DNA of 64,000 bases from Nemertoderma westbladi (GCA_032718475.1 JAUCBJ010006459.1:1-64000), one strand, 5' to 3'; counted from the stretch's first letter, positions 4,244 to 43,541 are shown. Program-made: numbers and translations. The notes: generated by a model from the letters alone, not told the origin.

Positions 4244-6973
4244 GTCTTATTATATACGTCAAGTACGGATAATAAAATGTCAAAGTGTCTGAATGTTGAA
4301 GTGTCAAACTTACCTAACCGGTACAAATAAATCAACAAGTCAGAATGTCGAAATGTCAAAATGTCGAAATGTACAAATGTCAAACTTACCTTGATATATA
4401 TATATATCATATATATACCCTAACCGGTACAAATAAACTAACAAGGTATATAATAAAATAAGTAGTAATCTAGCCTACCGGCTAAATTTGTACGAATAAG
4501 TGAGATAACGGTATACGTTAACAAAATGTAGATCAACAAGTATAAACAATAGGCCAAAACAGCAACGTCTAACGGGAAAATAAGTACCAACAACACTACT
4601 AATAGACAGTGAAACCCACAAATTTTGAGTACTACTGTGCTTTCTTAAGTTTGAACGACGCGAGTCGTAAAACTTACGTTCCTTTGATCTTCCAGTCGTA
4701 CAAATTCCCAAATACAAACCGGACGTGGGTCTTTCCGTTTTTCGGCGGCGCGGACGAATTTATTGTCTCCCAAACTTTGCGAAAAGCGGTCTAATCCTCG
4801 AAGCGGTCCAGAAATGAGTCCTTGAGTCCTGAAAAGGTCGAAGGTGAGAGTTTTACTTCTACGCTTACGAAAAATCTTCCTAGGTACCGATACAAATTGG
4901 TCTTTAAACCCTATGTACCTTTTCAAGTACCGAAAGTAACACCGCACACACACGGCGTAAAACAAAGTGCTACAAACTAACTGTTAGCTAGTCAAAGATT
5001 AAATACGAAAGTACTAGCTACCCTAAAAGCCTACTGAAGCAGGGGACGTTCTAAATTACTAAATTTACTAACCTTAGTTTTTAAATATCTCCTACTTTCA
5101 ATAGCTAACAATCGAAATAATACTATAAACTACGGCGGAAATACTATATACTAATTTATATAAATACTTCCTACTGTAAGGGTCCAGTAGTATACCGCTT
5201 ACCAGATCCTAGTAACGATGTATCTTACTATGAGACTCTAGTAATGTATACGGGCTTGTACAGTATCTGACAACAAATCCCAGTCCAGGATATCTAAACA
5301 AACAGATACAATACACAAACGACTACTGGCGAGGAACAGAGCCTTGTATCTATTCTATGTACGTGAGCGGGTCTAATGCCTACGTACTAGACAGAAGGAT
5401 ACCTGTCCTCTAACCGGTGAGGCAGATGTACAGTTACAGTAACAGACCAAACTCACGGGAAAACAATCCCCGCGCAGCGAATCCTAACTATCACTGACAG
5501 TCCTAAATACAGTAACTTGCCGCGGTGTGATTTATATGGTTTATATACGAGCTAGTGGGTTAACAGACCTAGCGTAACAACACTGACAGTCCTAAATCAG
5601 TCGAAAAGGGGTCGTACCTAAATGTAACAATAACTGATCCCCCTGTACGAAATCAGTCTAAAAGGTCAGGCCTAAATGTAACAATACCGTTGTCCAGACA
5701 AACAACAGTTTAATAACGAAAGTGAAATACTCCTTATTGCCGCAACTAAATCAGATCCTAATTTTACAAATACAGACAATTTCCACCTAAAGTAATGTAT
5801 AGTACGCTATAGCTAGTAGAACTTTAAGGGCAATATGTTTTAGGGCGTGTGTGTGTGGGTGTGTTACAAATAAAACAATTTCGTGTAATTCCTTTTACTA
5901 GGTTTTAGTGATTTTCTGACTAAATGATACCGTGCGCTAGCTACTAAAATAAACTAGTCGCGTTTGTAGAACTTTATACTCACGAATGACGTCAAAGCTC
6001 TCTCCTTCCTATCCACAACCCAATGGGCAACCACAGTGTTAGTAACTACACCCGTGATCGGCACTAATACCAGATTCTGGTTGTAAGATAAGAATAGGGG
6101 TTAATCGCTACCGTACGTTAGCTGATCTGGTATACTAATTTAATTCTAGAACTTTGTTGCTGCGGTAGTTAGCAGCAATACCTATCAGTACGTGGCAAGG
6201 CGCGGTAGGATATTAATAAACCTCCCTAGGCCAAGCAGTGTGCCGGTAGCAGAAATACTCCTTGCCTGATCAAATAGCTAACTCCAGACAGGGGGGGGGG
6301 GGGGGGGGTGTACTAATGTACGTTCTACAAAGCGAACCGGTACCAAACAGTCAGTGCTATGAATCACTAAATTATGGAACATATGCTGTCCGTACCTAAT
6401 ATGTACTCGCGTACTGACGAATGGCAATAGTTCGCACCTGTAGGAAGTACAGGTTTTAACCCAGGGATTCGTAGGACTTGACAAAGGGGGGGGGGGGGGG
6501 GGTTGTCTGGATATAATTATTTGATCCTAAATTTGCGGCGTCCAGTACGGTGTCACGCTTACCCTGATCTATAGGTCTTACGGCGGGCAAGGGCGTCGAA
6601 CAAAGTCTTACCTTCTCACAAAGCGGGCGCTGCATAGCAAGTGGAGTATTTCGAAGGGGCAAAGGGGGTGCGCGGTCGATCCAATGTGGGCGCTAGCGTG
6701 TTGTGGACATCCCTTCCCTGCGTTGCTTACGGCCTAACGATCTAGGCTGCCATCTCCCTGACGTTCGGCTGTCCCGAAGTAGGACCAAAGGAAAACATGT
6801 CAGGAATTTGCAGTATATTTACAGTTTTACAAAAGGATTTATCAAACGAAGTTTCAACAAGAAACCGAATAAACTAATTTTACAAAAGTAAGAGTTTTAC
6901 AAAGTGGTAAGAAGTGACATAATATAAGGTGTGTGTGACGTGATAACAGGTAATAACGGAAGGCAAACCGGCC

Positions 6974-7220
6974 TTTTATACTAGAAATTGCACATGGAAA
7001 CTAAACAGAATTTTCCACAGCTTCACCATTGAGCAATGAAGTGCTTCGTGCCCTATGATTGGCCCAGCTCATCGTTCAACGCAGTCCGGCCCTTACACTA
7101 ATCTGGGACATGGAATCCTAACAGAATTTTCCACTGCCTCACATTTGAGCAATAAGATAATTTATGCCCTATGATTGGCCTGGCTCATCATTCGCTACGC
7201 TGTACGCTTCTCATTGGCCT
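6974..7220 (-). promoter_or_regulatory. Pol II promoter in LTR C: duplicated ~115-bp unit with CCAAT and GAAnnTTC motifs, TATAAAA at 6980-6974
   Basis: A direct repeat at about 6991-7075 and 7107-7190 carries GAATTTTC and ATTGG in each copy. A third ATTGG is near 7213. TATAAAA reads on the minus strand. Confidence 0.6.
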
Positions 7221-7253
7221 ACCAATTAGCACCACACGAAAATAAATGGCCCC

Positions 7254-7343
7254 AAAATACAAATTTCCCGACTGGGATTCGAACTCGTAACCTATGTAAT
7301 GCACTATGTACTTTAACGCCTTAACCATCTGACCACTACGCCA
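7254..7343 (-). ncRNA. tRNA-like Pol III cassette (A box, B box, T-run) in U3 of LTR C
   Basis: The minus strand reads TGGTCAGATGGTTAAGGC ... GAGTTCGAATCC ... TTTT. The acceptor stem does not pair. Confidence 0.6.
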
Positions 7344-7599
7344 CGAGAGTACCTAAGGGTTTTATGTGTACAAATATGAATAGGCATATTACATTACTGT
7401 AGCTCAATCAAAATACGTCGGATTTTCGAAAGTTTTTACGTTAAAGTTAAACTACAAATGCTATCTTATAGTGAAATAATTCATCACCACGGGGTTAATG
7501 TTGACCCCCCACCCCCCCCCCAAACAATTGCTCATAAGAGTAGCTCTACTACTAGTATCGGCATGCTGCATTGCAGCTGCATTTTTAAGAATGCTGTGC

Positions 7600-7790
7600 C
7601 GGCTTGTGGACAAAATTGCGCCGCCACAATTCCCTATCACCCATGACATTTGCTAGATCATCCGCATCTTCAAGGCCAGTGTCCTTTAAGATCGTCTCAA
7701 GAAAGTCATGGGCTGTCCACCATACTTATTCACTCCGCTTGTTCGGCCTTAGGTATAGTTGAGAGACTGCTAGAGAGGCTTATTGTTGAG
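7600..7790 (-). mobile_element. Possible 3' remnant of an RTE-like LINE
   Basis: One minus frame reads ...DDLANVMGDRELWRRN, which resembles the C-terminus of RTE-clade ORFs. It is short and degenerate. Confidence 0.3.
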
Positions 7791-7814
7791 AGGCTTATTC
7801 ACTCCATGAGGCTG

Positions 7815-7925: not shown

Positions 7926-7944
7926 AAAATTACTGGAAGCAAAA

Positions 7945-9008
7945 CTTGGGATAGGAGTAGCGCCCACCCCTACCTTCGGGTAGCAGATAGGAGTAGCGTC
8001 CACCCCTACATTCGGGTTGCAGATAGGAATAGCGCCCACCCCTACCTTCGGGTAGCAGATATGAATAGCGCCCACCCCTACCTTCGGGTAGCAGATAGGA
8101 GTAGCGCCTACCCCTACCGTCTGGTAGCAGATAGGAGTAGCGCCCACCCCTACCTTCGGGTAGTAGATAGGAGTAGCGCCCACCCCTACCTTCGGGTAGT
8201 AGATAGGAGTAGCGCCCACCACTACCTTCGGGTAGCAGATAGGAGTAGCGGCCACCCCTACCTTCTGGTAGCAGATAGGAGTAGTAGCGCCCGCCCACCC
8301 CTACCTTTGGGTAGCAGATAGGAGTAGCGCCCACCCCTACACTCGGGTAGCAGATAGGAGTAGCGCCCACCCCTACACTCGGGTAGCAGATAGGAGTAGC
8401 GCCCACCCCTACCTTCGGGTAGCAGATAGGAGTAGCGTCGACCCCCTACCTACGGGTCACAGATAGGAGTAGCGCCCACCCCTACACTCGGGTAGCAGAT
8501 AGGAGTAGCGCCCACCCCTACCCTCGGTTGGCAGATAGGAGTAGCGCCCACCCCTACCTTCGTGTAGCAGATAGGAGGAGCGACCACCCCTACCCTCGGG
8601 TACCAGATAGGAGTAGTGCCCACCCCTACCCTCGTGTAGCAGATAGGATTACCGCCCACCCCTACCTTTGGGTAGCAGATAGGAGTAGCGCCCACCCCTA
8701 CACTCAGGTAGCAGATAGGAGTAGCGCCCACCCCTACCCTCGGGTAGCAGATAGGAGTACCGCCCACCCCTACCTTTGGGTAGCAGATAGGAGTAGCGCC
8801 CACCCCTACACTCAGGTAGCAGATAGGAGTAGCGCCCACCCCTACCCTCGGGTAGCAGATAGGAGTACCGCCCACCCCTACCTTTGGGTAGCAGATAGGA
8901 GTAGCGCCCACCCCTACACTCAGGTAGCAGATAGGAGTAGCGCCCTTCCCTACCCTCGGGTAGCAGATAGGAGTAGTAGCGCCCGCCCACCCCTATCTTT
9001 GGGTAGCA
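7945..9008. repeat. 36-bp minisatellite (GCAGATAGGAGTAGCGCCCACCCCTACCTTCGGGTA)n, about 29 units
   Basis: Head-to-tail units with point variants are directly visible, with no unique spacers. Confidence 0.95.
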
Positions 9009-9519
9009 GCTATCGAGAGAGGAGCCTTTGGGTCGCCTCTGGCTTCGGTCTACTTGATTTTTTGTTAGAAATATACATTATACAGATCTGCGCATTTAAT
9101 AAGGGTGTACTGTACATGTGTTCATGGACTGTTATTTTGCACTCCCCGCCAACTCCTTTTTTCTAGTATCTACTATCAGACTGTGACCGTAGATACTTGT
9201 TACTACTGTTAATGTACCATACACTGCAGTACTGGCGCAATGGTGCTCAACAGAACCTGCAGCCCTACAACAACCCTGGGTACTGGTATATTATAATATT
9301 GTAACAATGAATAATTCTGATATTAGTTGATTTAATTATATTAATTACACTAAACCTGCATATTGGCATATAAATAAAGTAAAATTTTTTGCTTTGTCGC
9401 TTATTCAATATCCAATGAAAACAAAAGATATTGAAAACGTGTGAAATTAATGTTGACATAAATACTTTCTACTAACTATCATTCTTTATTTTAATATTTG
9501 TATTATTTTATAAAATTAG

Positions 9520-11577: not shown

Positions 11578-11726
11578 TGCCTCAGTGAGGCGTAGTCTGT
11601 GCCTCAGTGAGGCATAGTCTGTGCCTCAGTGAGGCATAGTCTGTGCCTCAGTGAGGCATACTCTGTGCCTCAGTGCCACAGTGAGGCATAGTCTGTGCCT
11701 CAGTGAGGCATAGTCCATGCCTCAGA
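11578..11726. repeat. 22-bp tandem repeat with palindromic core GCCTCAGTGAGGC
   Basis: About 6-7 copies of GCCTCAGTGAGGCATAGTCTGT. Confidence 0.9.
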
Positions 11727-11765: not shown

Positions 11766-12297
11766 TGTTAGCTTATTCAATCCCGCTAACACCCCATAAA
11801 GTTGTAAGCCGATAAGCAATATTGGGAGCCACGAGATTGGGCAATTAACCAACTCGTGCCATCCCAATAAGAGTGGGAAGGAAGCACACAATAAAGGGTC
11901 AGGGGCCAAACCCCTAACCCAGAGAGTACAGGTGGAGTGAACGGGAACACTCCACGGGGCGCCAACAAGGGTAACAACCAATCAGAGGGGGGCAAGGCAT
12001 CGATTGAGTAGAGCAATAAGGCCACCGTGCAATATAACCAGTAACACAATGTCAGTAATTCAGTTATCTCAGTGCAGTGTAGGTTAGTTAGTTTAGATAG
12101 GGGAGCACGGGACTTTAGTTACCGTATCCCGCCTTCCGTATATTATACTACAGTCATCATATCTATATCTTATACCTATCAATTATTATACACCGAATAT
12201 CAGAACTCATTCACTATTTCCGTTTACTCTTTATACACGGCGGGGACGCGTAAACTAAACACCGGATAAATCGGGATCCCTCCTGGATCCCGTCACA
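11766..12297 (+). repeat. 5' LTR of B (532 bp)
   Basis: Near-identical to 43010-43541 (2 substitutions seen). TATAA lies near 12034 and a TCAGTT Inr near 12060. Confidence 0.97.
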
Positions 12298-12365
12298 GTA
12301 ACTAAATCAGCTGCCGCCCTAGATAAACTCAATAATCAACTAGCACCGAAATCTGCAGAAGAGAG

Positions 12366-18616: not shown

Positions 18617-18742
18617 TATAGAATTATATTCCCTAAATGCCGTGGATTTTCAAAATTTGATTTTATTCGGATTAACTTTGTAAAGATTGCTTTGAGTTCT
18701 CATTCGTATTGGTTCTATCATTTGTACATCTATCGGTCAAGT

Positions 18743-18829
18743 GGTTCAGTAGCTCAGTCGGTAGAGCGTTGGAAATTATATGTGTAGTAGGTGTTGAGTT
18801 CGAATCCTAGTAAGTGCGAATTATTTTTT
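18743..18829 (+). ncRNA. tRNA-like Pol III cassette in U3 of the A 5' LTR
   Basis: TAGCTCAGTCGGTAGAGC (A box and D arm), GAGTTCGAATCC (B box, 18796-18807) and T6 at 18824-29. There is no acceptor stem or normal anticodon arm. Confidence 0.7.
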
Positions 18830-18879
18830 GTACAGAATTTCAACTCATTTAAATTAACCGCTACAAATTAATTGCATTT

Positions 18880-19060
18880 ATCTGTACCAATGAGACTGTA
18901 GTTATTTGATTGTAACCAATGTCGTGCAAGTTATATATTAGCTGGACCAATAGCTATCTTTAAAACCCCGTTAGAACCCATAGAACAATCGAGAATTTTC
19001 TCGATTGATTGCGGCACAAATTTGCTATATAAAGGTGCGATTTGTTCATTAGTTATTCAC
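18880..19060 (+). promoter_or_regulatory. Pol II promoter of LTR A: three CCAAT boxes, HSE-like palindrome, TATATAAA at 19026-33
   Basis: CCAAT at about 18887, 18916 and 18947; CAATCGAGAA-TT-TTCTCGATTG at 18986-19007; TATA box followed by TTAGTT about 20 nt downstream. Confidence 0.65.
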
Positions 19061-21340
19061 TTCTACTTCACAGATTATCTTATCAATATTCTGTTGTGCT
19101 TAGTTTATTTCAGATTACATTGTACATATTATTATAATCTTCTGTAATAAAGTCAGAATATTCTCTCAGCTTTTCTATCTGTTTTACTATGGATTCACTA
19201 CGGTGAACTAACTCAGGGACAGGATGGCCGGCTAGAGATCGGGCCGCAGCAATGAACGGGAACATCACGGGAATGTAGACGAGAGACAACCCGCAATACC
19301 ATTTAGAGTTATTCGCCCATCGCCTGAAAGGTTAGACAGCGTTCGATCCTTGCTACCTAAGTGTAAGACCAAAAGATCAAAAGGTAGACGTAGTGACACG
19401 CTGTAAGCCCAAAATTACATCATAGGGACTGTACTGTCTTGATTCAGGAAAACCCACAGTAGACCTTCACATTCCTACGGGGGGGGGGAGAGAGAGCGCA
19501 GGCAGATACTAGTACGCAGATAGGACGTAGGCACACCGGTACAAGGCATACACATTGGTTAGGGTGCAGCAAACTGTACGCTTAACTCTTGCTAAGTACA
19601 GGTGCGTGTGCGACTATTTGCAGTACGACAGTGTCCATTACATCAGAACTTGTAGGCTAGGGGGTTGCTGTGTTTTTACCTGAATTGGGATTGTACCGTT
19701 CGGGCGGTAGGGCAGTTTACGTACTAGGCGCAAATAAATTGAGGCTATCAGGGATATACTAACATCTACCGTGTCCCCGCCAACGCCCTAATAGGAAGTT
19801 ACCCGGACTACCTGGGTGACTAAAATTCTAGATAGGAGCCAGGATAGCTATTAGTACCTGTACGCCTACAGTAGTAAACTAACACATCTCTTCTTAGTAT
19901 CAGGGACCTGGTACCTAAAATTGCCGAATTCTGGGCGTAGTATTAACCTTATGCCTGAATTTGAGTCCTGGAAATACGCAAGAGGGGAAGGAACCTTATC
20001 ATTCGTGAGTATTGGACCTACAAGTTACAAAATTAGAATATTCGTAAATGCACACCGTACCCAGTAATTATATATGTGAAGGAGCAAAACTGTTTTGACC
20101 GTTCAGAATTAACACGCGCGTTAGAAATTATTTACACCTCGAAATATATAAAATTAACTTTTGTCCGTACTGTGCTTTGCCCGCTAGTTAGACATCTCCA
20201 AATCTCTGCCTGTACCTAGCTAGCGTCTCTTTGCCCAACCATATAAATCACACCGCGGCAAGGTATACGAGCCTCTTAGTCCGTCAGTGAGTCAGCCTGA
20301 TTTTAGGATTCGCTGCGCGGGATTTTGTTTTATCGAAGTTTGTCTGCTCGTAGACTGTTTTCTGCCTCACCGGTTATAAGAGATCGATACTGCAATATAT
20401 TCGCTTACTTAGTTTATTGTTTTGGTGAGAAGGTCGGATTTATGATTTGATTTACAAACTTTACAGTAGGATATTGCAGGTATTGTTACCGTCTCTTCGC
20501 ATAGTAGGAATAGGCGTATCTCTTCAATTAGTAGGAATATGTTTTACTGAACTACGGTTCGGTAGGACTAAAGTTATTTGAAAATTCTGTATTTTGAGGT
20601 AAAAATTTGTATTTGATTAGCTAAGTGCTAATTTTTTGAAATAAAATTTGATTTGAACCGCGTGTAAAATATTTTTGGAATTGAATACCGGTGTTTTAAA
20701 AGGGTTTAAATACCATATTGTACCGGTACAAAATTTTCGTAAAAGTAAAACCTAACTCTTTTGTTTTTTCAGGATTCAGAACTCATTTCTAGACTGTAAC
20801 GGGAGCAAGACCGTGTTTAGCAAGTTTGGGAGATAGATAACTCAACAACTTTGGTTGGGAAAATCGCGTTTCGTCCGCAACGTTAAAAACGGAAAGGTTC
20901 ACGTCCGGTTTGTATCTGGGAATCTGTTTTTCTGGAGAATTATTGGAGTGGGTGAGTTCGAAAAGTTGCATAAATAAGTTAGGCATTACCGTATTAGTTA
21001 AAAATTATTGTGGGTTCCACTGTCTCAAGTATTTATGCATTCCGTATGATTTCTTTGTTCATTGCTGAATTAGTCCGTATTATTGTATTTAATTTACCTT
21101 TTGATAACGCATATCGTTATCCGAATTATTTGTTATAAAATTGGCCGCTAGGCTAATTTTATTATATACTTATTCCGTGACATTTATTTGCTGTAAAATT
21201 GGCCGTTTAGGCTAATTTTATCCATCTGCTATAAAATCGGCCGGTAGGCTAATTTTATAAGACTGTAATTAGTACCGTTTAGATAAATACGGTAAACTCG
21301 ATACTTTGACACTCACTTTACTTGACTTACAACTACCGAA

Positions 21341-27300: not shown

Positions 27301-30033
27301 CATGCCTACTAAGTATATGACGACACCACGAGCCGAGCTACAAGCCGCAACCCTGTCAACCACCATCGTGAACCTCATACAGACAGAACTACAGTCGAGT
27401 TTACAGATATTTTATTGGACTGACGCGACGTTGGTTTTATTTTACATAAACAACGACACACTCGAATTCAAGACATTCGTTGCTAACCGTCGCGCGGAAA
27501 TTCTAGACCGTTCAATAAAAGGGGATTGGCGACATTGTCCCGGACCACAAAACCCAGCTGATATTGCGTCGCGAGGAATGATGCCTGAGGAATTCTGTAA
27601 ACCGGAGAACAAAGAATTTTGGCAACACGGACCCCAGTTCTTGCAGAAATCGACACAAGATTGGCCTCCGTTATACGACAACAAATCTAACACTATCCCA
27701 AAGGACGCCGAAATCAAGAAACCAAAAAAGGGGAAGACAAAGAAAAGGACGACGGCGGCAAAACTCAAGAAAAAACCGAAGGCGAAATGGAAAGATATAA
27801 CTTCAAAGGTCAAGAGAGGAAGACTTGCGAGCCTTTCTACACCAGACATATCGCCAGACGGTCAACCAGACGCGTTACTAGACGGTCAACCAGACATTCT
27901 ACCAGACACTAGTGACATACTGACAAACAGTAAAGCCGCAGTTTCCCTATTGGAGCGGCCTTCTATTGACAAACAACCAGATACGTTACCAGACGTATCG
28001 CCAGACACATTACTAGACAGTCGACTAGACATTTTGTCAGAAACATCACAAAATGTTCTACCGGACATTAGTAATTTATCGACTAACAGTAAAGCCGCAG
28101 TTTCCCTATTGGAGCGGCCTTGTATTGACAAACTACCAATTTTGACACACTTGAGCAACCATAAGCACGGTGAAACCTCATGTATTACAGATGTGGGTAG
28201 TACCTACGCTAATGTAAATACAGGTGTTACTTTGCGCTCAAGAGACATACCGAACTTGCAACCTATGGTGAAACCTGGGATTAATATCGGCAGAAAAATT
28301 AGTTTACCGAAACCCACTGATCCCATAGAGTTCAAACCACCATTAACGATCGACTTACAAAGTACCGACAATCAAGGTAAGAAGACAAAGAAGGACAAAT
28401 TACTTGTAGACCCGGACGGATCAACAGTCAACAAGGGAATACCTACCGGCGGACCCGTGGGCCCTTCTAGTAATTCAAAACCTTCCAAAATCTCAATTGA
28501 CTTACCTGATGACGTCACAAATACTCATGTCGACCGTATTGTAAACCTAACAGATTCTTGGACAAACGCTTGCCGAAAATTAGCGTGGATTGTACGTTTT
28601 GTACAATACGTTAAAGGCAAACGTGACTTTACACGTCGACTTACATTGACTGAGATTGACAGGTGTGAAATTAAATTAATTCGCCATTACCAACTGCGAT
28701 ATTTCGCGCGCGAATTCACATCTATAAATCAAGGTCAACCAATCAAGTCGTCACCAATACTGAGTTGGAGTCCGATTATTTATAATGGCTTAATTTGTCA
28801 TAAATCTCGGCTTCAAAACATTGACTTTAACACAAACTTTAGGTACCCAATAATAATACCGCAACACCACGAACTACAACGTGCAATGATACTGGACGCA
28901 CATCTACATCTGAAACACGCTGGAAGACACCACTGTCTTTCCTACTTACGTACTAGATTTGTATTAATTTGACCCAGTAAAGCATTAAGTTCAGTGACAC
29001 GTACGTGTATTATTTGTAAAAAGGTACATTCTAGAATAGGTACCCAAGAAATGAGTGAACTACCACAAGCACGACTTCAAGCATTCAAACCACCTTTTAC
29101 AGAGACGGGAATTGATTGCTTTGGTCCCATACATACGAAACGTGGACGTATACTAGTAAAACGCTGGGGACTGATTTTCACATGTATGTCCAGTAGGGCA
29201 GTTCACATTGAACGTGTGATGGATCTTTCCACCAACGCGTTTATACTAGCACTGCGGCGATTTATTGCTAGACGCGGACTAGTAAAATGCTTGTACTCAG
29301 ACCAAGGGACAAACTTCGTTGGTGCTCGGAATGAGATTGCTAGAGCCTTTAAGAAATTAGATCATGATCAAATCTCGAACGAACTGCAACCTCACAAGAT
29401 TGTTTGGAAGTTCAATCCTCCAGATAGTCCTTGGAGAGGCGGAGTCTGGGAGAGATTAATTAGATCTATAAAGACAGCCATGGCAAAGGTCATTCCAGTA
29501 AACCACATATTAACAGACGACCAACTGACAACATTGTTGAAATCGAGGCAATACTAAATACTAGACCAATAGTATTAGTACCCGATGACAAACAATCTCA
29601 ATTTGCTTTAACACCAGCACACCTGCTAATGCAGGCACCGACTACTTTGACGCCGATTTCTATTCCAATAGAAAGCGACAGCTACGGTAGAAAAGCGTGG
29701 AAAATCACGCAACTACTAGCTAACAAATTCTGGGAAATATGGCAAAACCATTATTTGCCCTCTATTTCTGCCAGAACAACTTGGTACAATAACACCCGCG
29801 CATTAAAGCCGGGAGATCACGTGCTGTTGGCAGAAGTGAATCTAAAAAGACGCTTCTGGATAACAGGTGTAATTTTAGCCACACATCCATCTATGGATGG
29901 AGTGACAAGAACTGTGACGGTACGGACAATTGACGGTCGTACAGTAGACAGACCGACTCAACGTCTCGTACTTCTTGAAGAGACTCGTAACGAGTCTGGA
30001 GACTACAAATCTCCACCTAATACTAGTAAATAA
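21341..30033 (+). pseudogene. A gag-pol polyprotein (Gag, PR, RT, RNase H, IN); nonsense at 28970 and 4-bp deletion near 29535, both in the integrase region
   Basis: A 2543-aa ORF plus two downstream pieces. Motifs: ILDSAS, FYVDDG, FSDAS...RAEL...WTD...NPAD, H..HAG..CIIC, DCFGP, SDQGTNF, GGVWERLI and a GPY/F-like tail. The lesions are defined by comparison with A'. Confidence 0.95.
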
Positions 30034-30700
30034 TTAGGAGTTTACAAATAGATTTCCACGTACCTGTACACTGTAGTAAGGACAGCGGTGGGATTCCATT
30101 GTCTTTATATGTGAACATTGAGGGTAGTACCCTTATGTGTCACATAGGAGCGGGATTTGTAGGTATAAGAAATGTAATTCTACTTGGAACTCACAATATT
30201 GAGACATTTTTGAAATTTTAGACAATCCATTTGGATTTGAAAATTTTTAAAAATTTTCTCCAGTGAATAGATTTCAGGGTACAGTCGGGTGGAACTTAAA
30301 ATTAGAGAAACAAGAGAGGAAGACTTGCGAGCCTTTCTTAAAAAAAAAATTTTTTAATTAAATTTTACACGGTCTTGTTTCAATAAGTTACGTCGAAATA
30401 GACTCCCCTATATTTATTACTAATTCTTGATTGCTTATTTTCTGATAATAGTTTGGGATCAAAAGGTGAGTATTTTAGACTCACAGCCAGTTTAGCCCAA
30501 ATTCGTTTTTATTTCGGCAAAAAATTTTAGATAAGAAGCAGCGTGTCATTAAAGAAACCTTAGATCTTAGGCTATGGGTAGGAGGTTAGAGCGTTGTCGA
30601 AGCCCAAAGGGCAGACGAAACTCTCACGTCTCCTCACAACTAACTACAAACTCTGTTGTATTCCCTCTAGTAGTAATGATTATGTAACTACACCCTAATT

Positions 30701-33700
30701 ATGGAGAAAGGGATACAAGGAGAGCCGAGATGGGGATATGATATCCAAGAGGAGGCAGCAGCGCCATTCGAAAGATTTGGAGCCAAGGATTATACTATAT
30801 TTGGTATAAAAGAATTATCGGAAAGTACAGCGAAACTCGTGAGAACTAAATATGACTCGAACGTATTAAAGAGAAGGCAAAACGCATTAAACGAAAGAAT
30901 CGAAAGTTTGCGCCAAACCTTCAACGAACTTTACCCGTACGATGCTTTGTGTGATACGGGAGACATTAGCGAAGACCCCGATACTGAAATTAGTCGTTTG
31001 TATCATACCATGCAATACCTAAAGGCGCATGAACCTATGCCCGCGGTACGCGATGAATTCGATGGAATGCATCTTTACAGACGAACTCGAGGGGACGATA
31101 GAGAAACCAAGGAAGCATTTTCAGTTTATAAACTTTATTATCAATGCGGTTCTTGTATGCGCGAACAACGAAATGCGATTCCGATGCGTTTGAATAAGGA
31201 AAATCCCGAACCGATATTGGCGAGGTGTTCGAATCATCAACAACTACGCTACCAGGAAGGAGGGTATCCTTTATCGAATCCATATCATTCATTTGCTATG
31301 ACCGGACCAAAGGCGGGAGAAACTGTCATTTACCCACCTAAGGTTGTTGAACCCGATGTATTTGAACTTACGCTGGACGAGGCGAATCAGTCAACCCGCG
31401 AAAAGAAAGAAGCTCTTAGCCTATACAGAGCCTACAAGGCTTTCGAGAAAGGTGAGATGGAAGAATGGGGTGGAAGACTCGCGAGCCTACCTTGCCATTG
31501 GACGTCACACGATCAAACTTCAGCTAAGGAGATGACACCGGAAGTTTTCGAGAGCATAAACTTTGCTCAAAACGTTATTCAGAGACTACAGATTGCATCC
31601 CCGGAGAGGCCAAGAGAAATGCAACCGTATAGTACTTCAACTACGAAACCATTGAGTACGACACTCAATTTCCCTATTAGTATACCAGTCCGACAGGATA
31701 CGACGTACGAAATACCCATCGTGGATCATCCAGAAATCATTTCAAACTTGGAGTTTCTTCCTGCAGTTGTTTTCAGCGATATGAGTAAGATATATGATTT
31801 ACGTAGACATATTACTCAAAAGGTCGTGCACAACGTTCCACCTCATATTCAAGATTTCAAGGAACTGGATAGAGCTGGTGCCGACATAGCTCCAAGTAAT
31901 CTGAAAGGATATCTAACCAAGACGATTCGTTTATGGATTGGAACCGGAACCTTCGAGTCGGATACAGATATTGCCGCAGATTGGCGAGGTAAGGTTATTC
32001 GTTTCGATGAGGATAAGGATATAGAGAAGATTTGGCAACCTTCGGAAGAATTGTTGGATGAATGGACTAGGACGTTTAGATCGTTTCAGGAAAACGGTTA
32101 TATGTTTTACGATAACGAGGGCGGCAGTCATCAGCAGAGTTTGACTTCTAAGACTATACAAATTAGAGCGGCGGACGGAGTCCTGCACGTTTTCAGTAGA
32201 CAGAGGAGCGACAAACGAATGCCGATACCTCCAGCGAATACAAAGCGACACCATCTTATCACCGATATAGTAAAGAAGATGGACCAAGCCTGTAATATTG
32301 ACGCTAGAATGCTACCGAAGATGGTAAGAAACATGATTTTAGATAAAACTGTTGTAAAGGTTGGATCAGGAGTAAGGGAGGATTTAATTAGCGACTTCGC
32401 CGGCATGACGGACAGCGATGACCGACTACCGACACCATACGTCGACACTCGACCTCTTATTCTGTGGTCTATAGAACAGGGATATTTTCGTGAGTATAAT
32501 ACTCAGAAGACTGGAACTGGATACATTTCCTACCTGTTATTCAATTGGGATTATAAGGAAAATAAGAGAAACAAGTATATTGAAACTTATGGAGAAGGTG
32601 ATACTCCAGATATGAGTGAGTTTGAATCACAGCTTAAATGGAGAGGATGCATGTATTGGGCTATTACGTCACCTCCAAGAGCGGTCTTACAATATTATTT
32701 AGCGATAGAGTCGTCAGTGAATGTTTGCCTAATCGCCGACATTGTGTCTCGGACTCTCAAAAGACATCCACTTTGTCTCGGAGAAGATCATACGTTCTAC
32801 ATGGAAGGGAGAATTCGTACCGACGTGTTTAGACGATTCCTTGAACCCTTCTACAACTCCGACGCTCAGTGTAATGCCTTTACTCGAGCAGGATTTAGCA
32901 TATTTCGAGACGTGTATCTTCGCTGTGCGGGATCTCTTATCGAAAGACCATCTATGTTTACACTGTTACCCAATGAAGGAGAACGTATCGTGGAAATTAC
33001 GGATGAATCACGGCAGACGCGCGCGCCTATCGGTCACCTTGGTGATGAATTCGAAGTAACTACTACGATCGCCGACGATCCTTTAGAGGAACTTCTTGAG
33101 ATAGAAAGGAACCTCCCGAAGAAATCTCAGACGGAGATTCGACAACTTGAAGCAACAGATGCTATAGTTTGTATACAACCTTCAGAAACCTACCAACCCA
33201 TAGACCCAGATGATTACGATTATAGTGTGGGAGGAAGCGCTCGACCGATTGGAGATCTTATATATGAACGAGTGTGGTACCCTGCGAATACGATGTGTAG
33301 TAAATGTGGCGTCGCTGGACATCATATGGCAAAGTGCAGTGGAAAGCACATTACTACGACTCAGCTAATCTGTGGATGGTGTGGGGATCAAGGGTCTCAT
33401 ACCTTTTATACTTGCTGGAGATTTATGGCCCAATGTACTTATTGCAATATAAAGGGACATCGAGCATCTGAATGCCAACTAAGGGACATACCTTATGAAC
33501 ACGAATCTGTAAAACTCGTGAGGAAGTTATTTGATGAGTGGGAAGATTTAGCCGACGAACATGTATCAGCACAAAGAAGACGGTTTCCGTTGAGAGCGCA
33601 TCTCGGATTTTGGGCGGTAAATCCCCAGACGATGATGTCGGAAGGATATATCTCCGCTATGCCCCAATATGACGAACTTATCGAGGTTGTCGATATTTTG

Positions 33701-34426
33701 CCCCACGACAGCGGATTCCGAGTGGTGCGCGAGTATCTGTTACAAATTCACCCGGATAACAAAAACACGTGGAATTTTCAGAAAGTCGTTAATCGGATTA
33801 CGTATGGTGAATTCGATCGTTTCCGAACTGAAAAGCGGAACAAGGGAGCTTGGTTAACCGTCGCATGGGCGTACCGAGCCGCGTTTTACCACAAACGTAT
33901 ACGAGCGAGCGTATTCGAGGAAGAAGAGGTCCTAGAGGCGACAAATATACCAGCCACTCCGGTTGCGCCGTCTGCACGTCACCCTCGGGAGGACGGGCAG
34001 GGTAGGATCATACGGGTCCAAAAGGTGGGCCAACAATTAAAGAAAATTATTAATGTAGAAGAACGCAAAGGAGTTGAGCCGACTATTCGAGTTACTCGGG
34101 ATACGGTATCACTTCCAAGAGAACCAGTAGGAGGGTCGGGACATACACCAGCTGATCAACAGGGGGCGCAAGCTACTCTTGGGTCTGCGTCGTCCGCTTC
34201 TCGCGCGTTCCCAGACGTTCTACCAACTGTAGTGACGACTGATCGGTCACGAGGAATCGGTCGAGGTTTTGGGATGCTAAATAAACGAATTTGCGAGGAA
34301 ATAGTCGCACCGTCTCTCAACGTCCCAAGTAAACCAGTGACTCGCCCCACAAGTCCCATATCGCGAGCAAAGTCACCTGTGCGCAGTTTTCGAGGACGCG
34401 GCAGGGCTCGATCCACTAAGCGATAA
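30701..34426 (+). CDS. Accessory ORF2 of A (1241 aa): DEDDy 3'-5' exonuclease-like domain plus three CCHC zinc knuckles
   Basis: Intact ORF in the env position. FYDNEG (ExoI DxE), LPKMVRNMILDKTVVKVGSGVREDL (ExoII, WRN/EXD-like), YVDT and QYYLAIE (ExoIII-like). Knuckles: CSKCGVAGHHMAKC, CGWCGDQGSHTFYTC, CTYCNIKGHRASEC. Confidence 0.8.
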   Translation: MEKGIQGEPRWGYDIQEEAAAPFERFGAKDYTIFGIKELSESTAKLVRTKYDSNVLKRRQNALNERIESLRQTFNELYPYDALCDTGDISEDPDTEISRLYHTMQYLKAHEPMPAVRDEFDGMHLYRRTRGDDRETKEAFSVYKLYYQCGSCMREQRNAIPMRLNKENPEPILARCSNHQQLRYQEGGYPLSNPYHSFAMTGPKAGETVIYPPKVVEPDVFELTLDEANQSTREKKEALSLYRAYKAFEKGEMEEWGGRLASLPCHWTSHDQTSAKEMTPEVFESINFAQNVIQRLQIASPERPREMQPYSTSTTKPLSTTLNFPISIPVRQDTTYEIPIVDHPEIISNLEFLPAVVFSDMSKIYDLRRHITQKVVHNVPPHIQDFKELDRAGADIAPSNLKGYLTKTIRLWIGTGTFESDTDIAADWRGKVIRFDEDKDIEKIWQPSEELLDEWTRTFRSFQENGYMFYDNEGGSHQQSLTSKTIQIRAADGVLHVFSRQRSDKRMPIPPANTKRHHLITDIVKKMDQACNIDARMLPKMVRNMILDKTVVKVGSGVREDLISDFAGMTDSDDRLPTPYVDTRPLILWSIEQGYFREYNTQKTGTGYISYLLFNWDYKENKRNKYIETYGEGDTPDMSEFESQLKWRGCMYWAITSPPRAVLQYYLAIESSVNVCLIADIVSRTLKRHPLCLGEDHTFYMEGRIRTDVFRRFLEPFYNSDAQCNAFTRAGFSIFRDVYLRCAGSLIERPSMFTLLPNEGERIVEITDESRQTRAPIGHLGDEFEVTTTIADDPLEELLEIERNLPKKSQTEIRQLEATDAIVCIQPSETYQPIDPDDYDYSVGGSARPIGDLIYERVWYPANTMCSKCGVAGHHMAKCSGKHITTTQLICGWCGDQGSHTFYTCWRFMAQCTYCNIKGHRASECQLRDIPYEHESVKLVRKLFDEWEDLADEHVSAQRRRFPLRAHLGFWAVNPQTMMSEGYISAMPQYDELIEVVDILPHDSGFRVVREYLLQIHPDNKNTWNFQKVVNRITYGEFDRFRTEKRNKGAWLTVAWAYRAAFYHKRIRASVFEEEEVLEATNIPATPVAPSARHPREDGQGRIIRVQKVGQQLKKIINVEERKGVEPTIRVTRDTVSLPREPVGGSGHTPADQQGAQATLGSASSASRAFPDVLPTVVTTDRSRGIGRGFGMLNKRICEEIVAPSLNVPSKPVTRPTSPISRAKSPVRSFRGRGRARSTKR

Positions 34427-34499
34427 AAGGGAGGGCAAGGGTGGACGTAAGACTCGTGAGCATTTCTTATGATTTGTGATTTATTTTGAATTATATGTT

Positions 34500-35060
34500 T
34501 TATATTTAGAAAATTTAGTAAAACTTATATTTTATATTTGTGCTTATTCCGAACTTATGCAATTTGTATTGTTCCGAATTTATGAAATTTAGAAATAAGA
34601 ACTTATATTTTGTAAAACTTATATTTAGTAAAACTTATATTTTATATTTGTGATTATTCCGAACTTATGCAATTTATATTATTCCGAACTTATGCAATTT
34701 ATATTGTTCCGAATATTATGCAATTTATATTTTATGAGCAGTATTACAGTGAAACAGAAAGTAAGGGTAGATGGAAGACTCGTGGGCCTTTCTTATAGTT
34801 TCATTTGTAAAGTGTTATTTTGTATTTAGAAAGTTTTATAGTCAGAAATTTGTGCTTAGAAAGACTCATATTTGTAATTATTCCAAACTTATGCAATCTA
34901 CATTTAGGCACGAAAGTATTTGTAATTACTTGAATTTATGCAATATTTGAGATGCAATAGTAGATGGAAGACTCGCGAGCCTTTCTTATTGTTTTCATTT
35001 ATTTGTATTTGTAATTGTTTGAATTTATGCAATATTGAGATGCAATAGATTTATATTGGT
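34500..35060 (+). repeat. AT-rich degenerate repeats (TTCCGAACTTATGCAATTTATA) in the 3' UTR of A
   Basis: About 8 visible variants of GAAyTTATGCAAT; also present in A'. Confidence 0.8.
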
Positions 35061-35280
35061 GAATTTAATTTAGATTTATATTGTACTTACTTAGTAAAGC
35101 CTTAAATACGTAAAGTTTGAATTTGTAATTATTTTGTATCGAATCATTACGTAGAAAGGAAGTATTGTTTGAAATTTAATTGTAAATATGTAAGTACGCC
35201 CTAAGTATTCTATAGTTTAATTGATTATTGGTGAAAACCGTATATTTTATGCACGATAATATCCTGTTTTCATGGAGCGG

Positions 35281-37204
35281 TATAGAATTATATTCCCTAA
35301 ATGCCGTGGATTTTCAAAATTTTATTTTATTCGGATTAACTTTGTAAAGATTGCTTTGAGTTCTCATTCGTATTGGTTCTATCATTTGTACATCTATCGG
35401 TCAAGTGGTTCAGTAGCTCAGTCGGTAGAGCGTTGGAAATTATATGTGTAGTAGGTGTTGAGTTCGAATCCTAGTAAGTGCGAATTATTTTTTGTACAGA
35501 ATTTCAACTCATTTAAATTAACCGCTACAAATTAATTGCATTTATCTGTACCAATGAGACTGTAGTTATTTGATTGTAACCAATGTCGTGCAAGTTATAT
35601 ATTAGCTGGACCAATAGCTATCTTTAAAACCCCGTTAGAACCCATAGAACAATCGAGAATTTTCTCGATTGATTGCGGCACAAATTTGCTATATAAAGGT
35701 GCGATTTGTTCATTAGTTATTCACTTCTACTTCACAGATTATCTTATCAATATTCTGTTGTGCTTAGTTTATTTCAGATTACATTGTACATATTATTATA
35801 ATCTTCTGTAATAAAGTCAGAATATTCTCTCAGCTTTTCTATCTGTTTTACTATGGATTCACTACGGTGAACAAACTCAGGGACAGGATGGCCGGCTAGA
35901 GATCGGGCCGCAGCAATGAACGGGAACATCACGGGAATGTAGACGAGAGACAACCCGCAATACCATTTAGAGTTATTCGCCCATCGCCTGAAAGGTTAGA
36001 CAGCGTTCGATCCTTGCTACCTAAGTGTAAGACCAAAAGATCAAAAGGTAGACGTAGTGACACGCTGTAAGCCCAAAATTACATCATAGGGACTGTACTG
36101 TCTTGATTCAGGAAAACCCACAGTAGACCTTCACATTCCTACGGGGGGGGGGGGGGGGGGGGAGAGAGAGCGCAGGCAGATACTAGTACGCAGATAGGAC
36201 GTAGGCACACCGGTACAAGGCATACACATTGGTTAGGGTGCAGCAAACTGTACGCTTAACTCTTGCTAAGTACAGGTGCGTGTGCGACTATTTGCAGTAC
36301 GACAGTGTCCATTACATCAGAACTTGTAGGCTAGGGGGTTGCTGTGTTTTTACCTGAATTGGGATTGTACCGTTCGGGCGGTAGGGCAGTTTACGTACTA
36401 GGCGCAAATAAATTGAGGCTATCAGGGATATACTAACATCTACCGTGTCCCCGCCAACGCCCTAATAGGAAGTTACCCGGACTACCTGGGTGACTAAAAT
36501 TCTAGATAGGAGCCAGGATAGCTATTAGTACCTGTACGCCTACAGTAGTAAACTAACACATCTCTTCTTAGTATCAGGGACCTGGTACCTAAAATTGCCG
36601 AATTCTGGGCGTAGTATTAACCTTATGCCTGAATTTGAGTCCTGGAAATACGCAAGAGGGGAAGGAACCTTATCATTCGTGAGTATTGGACCTACAAGTT
36701 ACAAAATTAGAATATTCGTAAATGCACACCGTACCCAGTAATTATATATGTGAAGGAGCAAAACTGTTTTGACCGTTCAGAATTAACACGCGCGTTAGAA
36801 ATTATTTACACCTCGAAATATATAAAATTAACTTTTGTCCGTACTGTGCTTTGCCCGCTAGTTAGACATCTCCAAATCTCTGCCTGTACCTAGCTAGCGT
36901 CTCTTTGCCCAACCATATAAATCACACCGCGGCAAGGTATACGAGCCTCTTAGTCCGTCAGTGAGTCAGCCTGATTTTAGGATTCGCTGCGCGGGATTTT
37001 GTTTTATCGAAGTTTGTCTGCTCGTAGACTGTTTTCTGCCTCACCGGTTATAAGAGATCGATACTGCAATATATTCGCTTACTTAGTTTATTGTTTTGGT
37101 GAGAAGGTCGGATTTATGATTTCATTTACAAACTTTACAGTAGGATATTGCAGGTATTGTTACCGTCTCTTCGCATAGTAGGAATAGGCGTATCTCTTCA
37201 ATTA
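35281..37204 (+). repeat. 3' LTR of A (1924 bp), preceded by short PPT GGAGCGG; tRNA-like cassette at 35407-35493
   Basis: Direct repeat of 18617-20530. Confidence 0.95.
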
Positions 37205-39395: not shown

Positions 39396-39519
39396 AAGTG
39401 GAGTTAGCGCTTGGTTTAGTCGTCCAAGTTTTGGACTGAGGGGGGTGGGATTGAGGGCGAGACGCCCTTCCCACATATAAAATTTGAAAAATAAAATAAA
39501 AATAAAATAATAGTACATG

Positions 39520-40125
39520 AGTAGGTACGCAGTTAGTAGGCAGAAGGTACGTAGTACCTAATTAGTTAGTAGGTACGTAGTACCTAGAGTTAGTTAGTTA
39601 GTCAGAAGGTACGTAGTACCTAAGTTAGTTAGTAGGTACGTAGTACCTAGAGTTAGTTAGTTAGTTAGAAGGTACGTAGTACCTAATCAGTTAGTAGGTA
39701 CGTAGTACCTAGAGTTAGTTAGTTAGTCAGAAGGTACGTAGTACCTAATTAGTTAGTAGGTACGTAGTACCTAGAGTTAGTTAGTTAGTTAGTAGGTACG
39801 TAGTACCTAGAGTTAGTTAGAGAGTTAGAGGGTACGTGGTACCGTTAGTTAGAGTTAGAGGGTACGTAGTACCGTTAGTTAGAGTTAGAGTTAGAGGGTA
39901 CGTAGTACCGTTAGTTAGAGTTAGAGTTAGAGGGTACGTGGTACCGTTAGTTAGAGTTAGAGTTAGAGGGTACGTAGTACCGTTAGATAGAGTTAGAGTT
40001 AGAGGGTACATAGTACCGTTAGTTAGAGTTAGAGGGTACGTAGTACCGTTAATTAGAGAGTCGGAGGGTACGTAGTACCATTAGTTAGAGAAGAGTTAGA
40101 GTTAGAGGGTATGTGGTACCATTAG
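39520..40125. repeat. Tandem array of GGTACGTAGTACC cores with (TTAG)n/(TTAGAG)n spacers between pol and ORF2 of B
   Basis: Directly visible; about 18 cores. Confidence 0.92.
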
Positions 40126-40614
40126 AGAGAGAGGGAGTAAGAGGTAGAAGGGTATATAAGATATAGATATTAGTTAGCAGTTAGTAGCGAGAGGGGGGCA
40201 TATGAGTACAGCTGGGTAAATCGTGTGGCCACACGACGCATACTGCTGTACTGCATAGACCCACAGAGTAGGCCAGAATGTGGATTAGAGAATAGAATAA
40301 TCCATAGGCAGTAGTAAGTAGTAGGACAGTAGAATCAAATTAAAATAGATAAATAAATAGAATAGGGCTGAAAGTTGTGAAATAGTGGCAACATAAGGGA
40401 AGTTATTCTAGAACATAATAAAAGTAACGGACAGAAATTGTAAATTACGCTCATTTACTAGCTTCAAAATTAATTAGGAATAATTTAGGTTAAAAGGCGC
40501 AGTTAAGTAGAAGTAGGCCATTATCGAACTGTACAGAACATCCTAGATACATCACTCATCTGTATTGCGCCTTGGTAAGGCACCACCTTGCAGGTGAGCG
40601 AGTGAACGTTCGGA

Positions 40615-42298
40615 ATGGCGAGTAAGTTGATCAGAAAGAGAAAGGCGGAGTCAGGAGGAAAGGAGATACTGGTGGATTTCACCGAGAGACATCCGGAAGA
40701 GAAGACGAGAGGATACTACGAGAGGTTGGAAAGGGGTCACGCGGCACGAGCGTTGCAGGATCACTTCCGGGAGGCGCACGAACAGCGGCTGGTCGGGACC
40801 TACGGGACCCCGTCGCTAGACAACGCGATCTTCCAACATTTCCACTACGTAGTGAAAGGGGACGAGGCGAAGTTCGGGATTCCGAAGTACCCGAGGGAAT
40901 CACCGAGGAAGGACTGGAAGAGGTTCATAGAGTCCGTCAACAGAGGAGGATATATGATCCTAGATGACGAGGGAACCGTGGAGGACGAAGCGGGTTCGAG
41001 ACGAGGAACGGCAGGGTCGGCCAGGACCATACTCCTACATTTGGCCGCGCCAAATGGGGACATCTTCTTATTCGACCTAGGGACGTATGGGAAGAAGGAC
41101 GGGCCGAAATTAGACCGATTACCGAAAGCGGTACAAGTCTTAGTAAGAGAGAAGTCGACGACGAAAGTGGGATCGGCGATTCGCGAGGACGCGGAGAGGA
41201 TCATCGGTCCGGACGCCACCAACCTCCTGGATATGCAGAAAGTCTTTATGGCTATGACGGCACCGGATGGATTGGGGGTAGTCGGAAACACAGGCCAATG
41301 CGGGGCGGTGGCGATGGGCCAATTATTGGGGCTCGTATGCCACAAACCGATGGACTGGGGGAAGTTTAGGGAAGAATACGGAGCAGAACTAGCGAACTCG
41401 CTAAAGTGGGGAGCGAGACCGGGAAAGCAGGAGGTATATCAATTCCGCAGAGGAGCGATAAAGGTATATCAGAAGCGATATATCCTACAGGAAGACTGGA
41501 TCATGATAAGTTTGCTTAACTTATTTATGACCGTGGTTATCGAGAGGGAACCAGGGGCATTTCTGTTATCGGGATCACCCCTAAGCTACAGGAGAGCCTT
41601 TAAGACGGCCTTTGACGGTCTGGTAGACCACCCGGGGCTGAAGGGTGAGTCGGTATACTATAACAGCCGGCATCTGGTAGACGGGGAGACAGATACACCG
41701 TATCAGAGATGGGAGCAGTTAGAAGCGGATAGACGAGAAGCAAAGGGGACACTACGGACGCGAGTGCGACTGGATGAACGACGAGGAGAAGTTCACAAGG
41801 TTCGAGGAGTGGGCCGACGTCGGGGCCATGACGCGCCAGCGCATGAAGGCCCAGGAGTTTAAGTGGGGTTTCTTCCTTATCAATCAGGAGACTCACATGG
41901 AAATCATAAAGCGGAGGCTACCGTTTACCTACCAAGAGGTAGCAACGGCGGCGTCGTACGCTGGAGTGATGAACACGCAAAGGTATCTGGACAGGTGGAC
42001 GCCAGACAACCGAAGGGAGTTTAGGGATTTCTTGGCGGAGCACGTACCAAAGGCAATGAAAATGATCCTATGGGACGCCACTAGAGGGAGACAACCGGGC
42101 CACTCTGAGGGGCCACCGGCGAAGCGATATCGGGCACTAATAACACCAGCGCCCAAGGAGCCAACGACCGGGATCAGCAGGGAGGTGGCGGCGAAGGTCC
42201 GAAAACAGAAGGCGGATAATGCCAGAGGAACGGTGATAACCAAGAAACGACCCAGGGAAGAGGACGCCAGGGGGAACTATCCCCAGAGGAACAGATAG
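40615..42298 (+). pseudogene. Accessory ORF2 of B: DEDDy exonuclease-like, homologous to A ORF2; frameshifting deletion near 41735
   Basis: GYMILDDEG, LHLAAPNGDIFLFD, RLPKAVQVLVREKSTTKVGSAIREDA and LLDMQ. The second frame resumes with a half knuckle (KQRGHYGREC) and FEEWAD...WGFFLIN, matching A's FDEWEDLAD...LGFWAVN. Confidence 0.8.
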
Positions 42299-43009
42299 GT
42301 TCCCGAGTCGAGGGAGAGAGACTGGGACTTGGACGTGGTACGCCTGGAAGGCGCCGCGTGGGACGTACGAACTATTAAGTACAAATCTAATTAATGCAAA
42401 TAATCATATAAGTGCAATTTGTATGTACGTACGTAGTAATTAGTAATCTAGAAATATATACGTTCGGAGTAAGTACTATAGTCATACAACCTTTCTCAAT
42501 TAGCTACTGGGACTGGGGGATAACTGACTATGGGACTATGGACGAGACACCAGACAATTCCACACTTCTTGAGTGCGACGGCACAAGAGGGGGGGGGGGG
42601 AGATTCTGTCAGAAGGGATGGGACAGTCAGAGTGAGGTTGAGGGACGGAATAATAGTGCGGAGTGCGGAGAGAGTGCGGACGCAATTCTAGTGTGGGGGG
42701 GGGAGAATAAGAGGCTGAGCGAGGGACGAGGAGGTCCGAGTGTGAGAGAGTTAGGGTGAGAGTGAAGGTGAGATAGGGCGGAAGTGTTGGGGAAACAAAA
42801 GTTGCGTGAAAGGTGAGCGCGATCGGCCCGACATGAGACGCCAGGCACACAGGGTAGCGTTATCATACCCATAGGGGGCGGCCTGGAAAGCCGGCTCCAA
42901 GAGAAAAGAATTCCACCCCACACCCGATACTAGATCGGGATCCAGCGGGATTGTAGCGCACTTTTTGGTTGATGCTATCTTCTTACCGGGAAGATAGCAT
43001 GGGGGGGAG

Positions 43010-43541
43010 TGTTAGCTTATTCAATCCCGCTAACACCCCATAAAGTTATAAGCCGATAAGCAATATTGGGAGCCACGAGATTGGGCAATTAACCAACTCG
43101 TGCCATCCCAATAAGAGTGGGAAGGAAGCACACAATAAAGGGTCAGGGGCCAAACCCCTAACCCAGAGAGTACAGGTGGAGTGAACGGGAACACTCCACG
43201 GGGCGCCAACAAGGGTATCAACCAATCAGAGGGGGGCAAGGCATCGATTGAGTAGAGCAATAAGGCCACCGTGCAATATAACCAGTAACACAATGTCAGT
43301 AATTCAGTTATCTCAGTGCAGTGTAGGTTAGTTAGTTTAGATAGGGGAGCACGGGACTTTAGTTACCGTATCCCGCCTTCCGTATATTATACTACAGTCA
43401 TCATATCTATATCTTATACCTATCAATTATTATACACCGAATATCAGAACTCATTCACTATTTCCGTTTACTCTTTATACACGGCGGGGACGCGTAAACT
43501 AAACACCGGATAAATCGGGATCCCTCCTGGATCCCGTCACA
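43010..43541 (+). repeat. 3' LTR of B (532 bp) preceded by PPT GGGGGGGAG
   Basis: Direct repeat of 11766-12297, followed by TSD TTAAA. Confidence 0.97.

Follow-up and report, generated by a model that had tools for sequence, protein, structure and literature searches.

Here, we propose that three families of BEL/Pao retrotransposons, A, B and C, very probably prime their minus strand with their own RNA, free of tRNA. They lie in a 64,000-nucleotide stretch of Nemertoderma westbladi DNA (GCA_032718475.1 JAUCBJ010006459.1:1-64000), the whole of which was analysed and is called the window below. The proposal is based on the lack of a tRNA-type primer-binding site (PBS) next to the long terminal repeat (LTR) and on the pairing of the bases found there with a short stretch inside the LTR itself. 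An earlier reading of this DNA (the original prediction) had put forward tRNA-independent self-priming, which the pairing and the missing TGG support well, and had coupled it to a 3'-5' exonuclease encoded by a second open reading frame (ORF2). That coupling is unsupported: the exonuclease is a notable passenger.

Primer-binding sites and their LTR complements

The six motifs that make up the PBS-complement pairs are all present where the original prediction had placed them, and each PBS is, as it had said, flush with its LTR, beginning at the first post-LTR base. In C (minus strand), the PBS occupies 5165-5174, flush with the LTR end, and its complement, the predicted end of the self-primer, 6440-6449. 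In B (plus strand), the PBS is at 12298-12306 and the complement at 12114-12122, with a second copy at 43358-43366. In A (plus strand), they are at 20531-20541 and 19468-19478, the second copy of the complement being at 36132-36142. TGG is absent within 40 nt of the LTR end in all three families.

The B pairing runs over 9 perfect bp, which 6 of 2000 dinucleotide shuffles equalled, and the C pairing over 10 bp plus one G-U (8 of 1000 shuffles). A has 8 perfect bp, then an A.C mismatch and then 2 further pairs. Shuffles did as well in 94 of 2000 cases, a run of 8 bp was likewise reached from 1 of the 30 leader starts tried by sliding, and the A pairing is marginal when taken alone. The partners are, in addition, specific to their lineage: in cross tests, the PBSs of A and C paired with the B LTR over only 4 bp, and the PBS of B paired with the long A and C LTRs over 6-7 bp, at other places. 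Compensated differences are found at positions 4-6 (B versus A/C) and at position 8 (A versus C), and each complement ends at the base facing the first post-LTR base. Covariation between the two sides of the pairing, which had been claimed for three families, is therefore present, but the LTRs of A and C align along their full length and so represent one lineage, leaving two independent lineages (A/C and B) and not three.

Comparison with related copies points to a pairing site under function. In contigs from B relatives, joints tend to begin where the 9-nt PBS ends, with 5 of the 8 listed at 12306-12310 and another 2 at 12304. Both the PBS and the complement are free of variants among the best 40 of 146 variant rows. 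The same two sites are free of variants in A among the best 40 of 162 rows. Both LTRs of A1, the first of two family-A copies in the window, end in a 27-bp duplication (20504-20530, plus strand) that includes a spare PBS-like copy and is absent from the second copy, A2, whose LTR terminates one 27-bp unit earlier, before the upstream PBS-like copy. Thus, the LTR end follows the PBS motif.

Outside elements and the ORF2 protein

If self-priming depended on ORF2, the two would be expected to occur together in other BEL/Pao elements. A reverse transcriptase (RT) scan of genome contigs gave three BEL/Pao contigs (L007-L009), which were filed in bacterial bins and are probably eukaryotic or host DNA. 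The interval between pol and the LTR is complete in each (185-335 nt; that of L009 includes a gap of 100 N with an 11-nt overlap flanking it), and all three lack ORF2, with no profile match under E 1. In all three, the LTR end also reads CA|GT, as in B and C, and TGG does not occur within 20 nt of it. Since they combine a non-tRNA site with the absence of ORF2, BEL/Pao self-priming does not need the exonuclease, and the co-occurrence on which the original prediction relied fails outside the window, where 0 of 3 elements carry ORF2 and L008 has a clear self-primer of 13 bp. An AC|GT junction common to elements with and without ORF2 suggests a common machinery. The RT scan of metagenomes found 6 short loci, none with a 5' LTR end that could be read, and these do not enter the PBS count; viral contigs gave no match, either in RT scans or with a 23-nt LTR motif.

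The readable primers outside the window are built by splicing, whereas those of A-C are not. In L008 (5459-6291), a GT-AG intron in the LTR builds the 13-bp complement, the best of 104 candidate ends and equalled by 0 of 40 shuffles. L009 (3239-4185) reaches 11 bp by the same splice route, the top result among 168 ends; its acceptor is a textbook one and its LTR end resembles that of B. A splice-built primer was also considered for A-C and rejected: no GT/GC-AG junction in A or B reaches the unspliced pairing, and C offers one weak GC-donor junction (11 versus 10). As a separate observation, L009 has a 238-amino-acid ORF between the PBS and gag (L009:4231-4947) with no Pfam or PDB match; by eye, its motifs resemble those of an SGNH/GDSL esterase.

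What, then, is ORF2? It lies downstream of pol in both complete families. In A1 (30701-34426, plus strand), it has a DEDDy-like domain (ExoI at ~32105, ExoII at 32372 and ExoIII at 32693) and three CCHC knuckles. In B (40615-42298, plus strand), the domain is homologous and the frame is shifted at ~41723-41862, where the knuckles would sit; neither frame piece has an intact knuckle (0 versus 3 in A). Of the exonuclease-knuckle ORF originally described for both complete families, the DEDDy-like part is therefore found in A and B and the knuckles in A only. The two proteins are 23% identical (E 6e-7); a profile built without B recovers B (E 1e-11), and one built without A and B recovers both (E 4e-19 and 1e-4). 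It is likely that ORF2 is DEDDy-like. Pfam has no exonuclease match for ORF2 of A or B, the domain's top PDB match is EXD2 (E 0.059), and the predicted folds have predicted local distance difference test (pLDDT) values of 31 and 36. Atlas feature scores to PF01612 are 0.88 for A, as a lead only, and 0.94 for B, with 24 of 30 matches to PF01612. The ExoI D-x-E and the ExoII D are invariant in all four aligned proteins (A, B, P0001 and P0003). ExoIII reads YxxxE in A and B versus YxxxD in P0001 and P0003, and with E in place of D the activity of ORF2 is uncertain. A homologue search gave four matches, two of them exonuclease-knuckle relatives (both singletons without genomic context) and two knuckle-only, other searches gave 0, 0 and 1, and ORF2 scans of viral and metagenome contigs gave no match. 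On these comparisons, ORF2 is probably an accessory nuclease-like protein that is not needed for making the primer.

The original prediction had instead given ORF2 a direct part in priming: an RNA annealed to the PBS, either a short LTR transcript or the complement's 3' copy, would have its unpaired 3' tail trimmed by ORF2 as far as the duplex. We consider this unlikely. It would explain why a homologous ORF2 is found in both complete families though their RTs are 37% identical, and why the ExoI and ExoII residues are invariant. A canonical AATAAA upstream of the complement in A fits a primer supplied in trans, which makes the model possible for A and C, and A-C, having primers that are not splice-built, could use another route than the outside elements. 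Yet all three outside elements have the CA|GT non-tRNA site without ORF2, the ExoIII change leaves activity in doubt, and ORF2 of B is broken in an element whose LTRs differ at just 2 sites, although complementation in trans could rescue it. DEDD trimmers also often leave a short overhang, which counts against the model. Lastly, DEDDy ORFs are carried by rotifer Gypsy-like (Juno, Vesta) and Athena elements, their activity not demonstrated and no link to priming reported in the passages available, where a motif search found no mention of a PBS or of self-priming (PMC5408684).

Routes to the primer end

In light of ORF2 probably being dispensable for priming, how might the 3' end of the self-primer be made? 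We lean, with some reserve, towards a cut made by the element's own Pol on the 3' side of the complement, which would leave a primer whose 5' tail is long. The 9-11-base LTR stretch would pair with the bases that directly follow the 5' LTR, and the RT-RNase H of the same Pol would cut just 3' of it to free the primer end, as in Tf1, for which RNase H cleavage of the self-primer is described as established in the available passages (PMC7175516; PMC4600332). TATA-predicted starts lie ~50 nt (B), ~410 nt (A) and ~500 nt (C) upstream of the complement, in agreement with the distances first reported, the starts themselves being predictions; given these starts, the primer would retain a 5' extension of ~50 nt in B and 400-500 nt in A and C. 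DNA synthesis would start at the PBS, reach the cut and then jump to the repeated region (R) at the 3' end, a transfer that calls for genomic RNA with its end downstream of the complement.

With an internal primer that has a long 5' tail, the question arises of how plus-strand transfer finishes. The likeliest jobs for ORF2 would be the removal of unpaired 3' flaps (for example, of plus-strand DNA overrunning the long primer) or an action on host silencing RNAs. Since plus-strand synthesis on the long primer would lack the stop provided by a tRNA or an 11-mer, flap trimming would be a reasonable alternative role for ORF2. A bolder version, which we regard as speculative and rather unlikely, is that the A-B-C lineage swapped a splice-built primer for a long internal one and depends on the captured exonuclease-knuckle protein to finish this primer or trim its flap; if true, a nuclease dedicated to priming without tRNA would be seen here for the first time in a retroelement.

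A poly(A) signal downstream of the complement is a requirement of a Tf1-type cut in the 5' copy. L008 and L009 have a poly(A) hexamer in this position, and B relatives have a canonical one at the matching place, also downstream of the complement. A has a canonical AATAAA at 19146, 320 nt upstream of its complement, so that a cut in cis requires read-through genomic RNA or a second RNA copy. Later candidate ends in A are the AATAAA at 19733 and a TATAAA block near 20242 that is conserved with C. Contig depth in sequencing run X4 drops after the first A AATAAA; this was not counted, as contig depth cannot locate RNA ends. Strongly conserved LTR blocks of A (20235-20376) and C (5411-5544, minus strand) open with a TATAAA-like motif and could be a second promoter, a late poly(A) signal or a packaging element.

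Several observations weigh against self-priming by such a cut. In an unconstrained fold from the predicted start, the duplex has a pair probability of at most 0.05 in all three families and is missing from the minimum-energy fold. Forcing the duplex takes 14 kcal/mol in C; on the favourable side, the cost is 1.6 kcal/mol in B and 0 in A with an RNA whose fold begins 60 nt upstream of the complement. Accessory helices like those of the three-duplex pretzel described for Tf1 in the available text (bioRxiv 10.1101/2022.12.06.519325) are no better here than with shuffled queries (9 tests), a second helix being possible in B (4 of 60 shuffles, the best result) and none significant in A or C. If most A RNA ends at the AATAAA at 19146, a cut in cis would part the PBS from R. 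Among the outside elements, the L009 junction is weak alone (12 of 40 shuffles), the middle of the L007 LTR is missing and hence its complement is not readable, and the RTs of the three are 33-45% identical in an unresolved tree with B on a long branch, so that their mechanism may differ from that of A-C. Separately, a near-copy of the PBS in the B LTR (12250-12259) pairs with the complement in the minimum-energy fold and might act as a switch; relatives have a poly(A) hexamer there.

Splicing may decide which A RNA is copied. The A leader intron (19331-20772, plus strand, GT..AG) holds the complement, the remainder of the LTR and the PBS. Its joint (19330-20773) was seen in one contig of run X4 (depth 250, short side 26 letters) and was not seen in runs X1, X3 and X5. 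Although X4 is labelled 'DNA?', the joint and an A-to-G-rich contig lead us to infer that it is RNA-like. By homology, C has a predicted leader intron (4829-6611, minus strand) whose donor and acceptor align with those of A and which encloses complement and PBS. In A, and in C by the same homology, splicing would strip primer and PBS from the gag-pol mRNA, leaving only unspliced RNA to be copied; spliced A RNA could thus be translated and not reverse-transcribed. A parallel is Tf2, where alternative starts are described, in the passages at hand, as yielding short and long transcripts without or with the self-primer (PMC5341516). For B, no joint was seen at the candidate leader-intron sites 12083 and ~12358, where read cover is low. 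Two side observations belong to the leader: a conserved non-coding second exon with a GT donor in A and C (20773-20951, plus strand, and 4828-4677, minus strand) suggests a two-intron leader, and a 701-nt X4 contig at 20074-20190 has 91 differences, among them a dense A-to-G cluster, which resembles ADAR hyper-editing of LTR RNA.

A second transcription start directly at the complement would give plain Tf1 geometry, with the upstream TATA promoter serving the spliced mRNA only. We hold this to be improbable. The initiator-like match (YYANWYY) noted earlier at the start of the A complement does exist, the A intron already divides mRNA from genomic RNA, and the alternative Tf2 starts, so far as the available text describes them, offer a precedent (PMC5341516). 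However, all three complements lack a TATA-like box ~30 nt upstream, that of C lacks a clean initiator match, and the A intron donor lies upstream of the complement, so that the spliced RNA that was observed began further upstream.

Priming by a host RNA (a tRNA half or another small RNA), with the LTR complement acting as a regulatory helix that masks the PBS, is known in part from other LTR elements, in which the accessible passages describe half-tRNA and anticodon-loop priming (PMC6317226; PMC10886601). It is a distinctly improbable explanation here: the lineages differ in their PBS and, in step with it, in the LTR complement, a splice junction completes the L008 complement to 13 bp, and each complement ends opposite the first post-LTR base. 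That the primer is the 3' end of an excised LTR intron, trimmed by two bases, is scarcely credible. The C complement is indeed followed by AG|G, a textbook acceptor ~175 nt downstream of a conserved donor, but no acceptor follows the complement in A (a G run) or B (CG) and no such joint was seen for A.

The window and known systems

The window is filled by nested BEL/Pao retrotransposons, with A1 inserted in the pol of B. Element B (11766-43541, plus strand) has a 5-bp target-site duplication (TSD), a 5' LTR at 11766-12297 (532 bp, TG...CA, 2 differences from the 3' LTR), a 3' LTR at 43010-43541 and a gag-pol at 12368-39395 that has several frameshifts and is interrupted by A1. Element A1 (18617-37204, plus strand, 18.6 kb, 5-bp TSD) has a 5' LTR of 1914 bp (18617-20530), a 3' LTR of 1924 bp (35281-37204) and a gag-pol (21341-30033) with 1 stop and 1 frameshift in the integrase region. 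Its LTRs have the ends TA...TA and not TG...CA (18617, 20530 and 37204), whereas the related C retains TG...CA. A2 (49331-62889, minus strand) is 5'-truncated and 97% identical. A single LTR of C is inside the window, the 5' LTR (5175-7526, minus strand, 2352 bp), with the 5' part of gag-pol (59-4246, minus strand; DUF1759 and zf-CCHC, in-frame stop at ~3317), which exits the window; its 3' half is outside.

In Pfam, A and B have a Pao-type Pol (Peptidase_A17, DUF1759 and DUF5641) in the order protease, RT, RNase H and integrase, together with two LTRs, 5-bp TSDs and a polypurine tract, and these elements have no chromodomain match. C has a DUF1759 match and 63-69% DNA identity to A. Placed on the ancestry of Pol as read from sequence, all three are BEL/Pao members that are variant in their PBS.

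In the U3 (unique 3') region of A, upstream of the TATA box, a tRNA-like A-box/B-box element precedes a T run (18745-18830 and 35409-35494, plus strand), with a homologue in C, likewise upstream of the TATA box and followed by a T run (~7265-7345, minus strand). Neither is called a tRNA by ARAGORN or Rfam, and they may be a Pol III promoter or a chromatin barrier. Another tRNA-like A/B-box sequence lies 60 bp downstream of B (43598-43675, plus strand), probably in a short interspersed element (SINE) or another LTR. Elsewhere in the window are a decayed gag fragment of a fourth BEL family (45036-47300, minus strand, ~71% identical to B), a LINE-like (long interspersed element) sequence with an endonuclease (Exo_endo_phos) ORF (47974-49374, plus strand) that adjoins the A2 LTR end, and tandem arrays: a 36/108-bp array (7950-9013), a palindromic array just upstream of B (11578-11725) and an array between B pol and ORF2 (39531-40144).

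To our knowledge, Tf1 is the only element whose self-priming has been demonstrated biochemically; for a few Gypsy and copia lineages, it has been inferred. Self-primed Gypsy elements in a sea anemone are reportedly noted in Repbase, and an element-encoded primer is said to have been proposed for the nematode element Cer7, on which our literature search found nothing. That search, whose coverage excludes most subscription journals and Repbase Reports, found no report of BEL/Pao self-priming or of a DEDDy or exonuclease ORF in BEL/Pao.

Among known systems, the Helenus TRIMs (miniature retrotransposons with terminal repeats) share with A and C a tRNA-like A/B-box in the LTR, but are described in the available passages as non-autonomous and tRNA-primed (PMC10886601), whereas A and C belong to BEL/Pao, are coding and have a TATA promoter. 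Plant TAR copia elements and Tcn1 are alike in that self-priming was inferred from LTR-PBS complementarity of at least 10 bp, and in more than one superfamily; they belong to other superfamilies, and the passages available mention no exonuclease ORF (PMC6317226). Rotifer Juno and Vesta LTR elements and Athena/Terminons carry, in the text available, an ORF downstream of pol for an RNase D-like 3'-5' exonuclease in whose catalytic set a D has changed to E (PMC5408684). By that description, our elements are set apart from the rotifer DEDDy ORF3 by being BEL/Pao, by the fusion to three CCHC knuckles (in A) and by the E at ExoIII. Whatever the role of the DEDDy-knuckle ORF, captured exonucleases thus extend to BEL/Pao.

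The Belpaoviridae, as defined by the International Committee on Taxonomy of Viruses (ICTV), have an 18-nt PBS to tRNA-Arg/Gly, LTRs of 0.2-1.2 kb and a length of 4.2-10 kb, and are poorly understood (PMC8742986). The elements described here are alike in having a single gag-pol (DUF1759, Peptidase_A17 and DUF5641), LTRs, a polypurine tract and an extra ORF downstream of pol. They differ in having no PBS to tRNA-Arg/Gly, LTRs of up to 2.35 kb, a length of 18.6 kb in A and an extra ORF that is nuclease-like and not env-like. If they are self-primed, annotation tools that require a tRNA PBS would miss such elements.

The closest parallel in priming is with Tf1, Tf2 and Tj1 and the wider Tf1/sushi group, which likewise have no tRNA site, a flush PBS, an LTR complement of ~9-11 nt and an inferred cut 3' of the primer. 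In Tf1/sushi, the Pol is that of a Ty3/Gypsy chromovirus with a chromodomain, whereas A-C have a BEL/Pao Pol and, in addition, ORF2; the Tf1 complement is at the first base of the transcript, whereas in A-C it is predicted to lie 50-500 nt inside. Distant BEL/Pao elements that share the CA|GT site and have self-primers either ready-made or built by splicing would make BEL/Pao the third self-priming superfamily.

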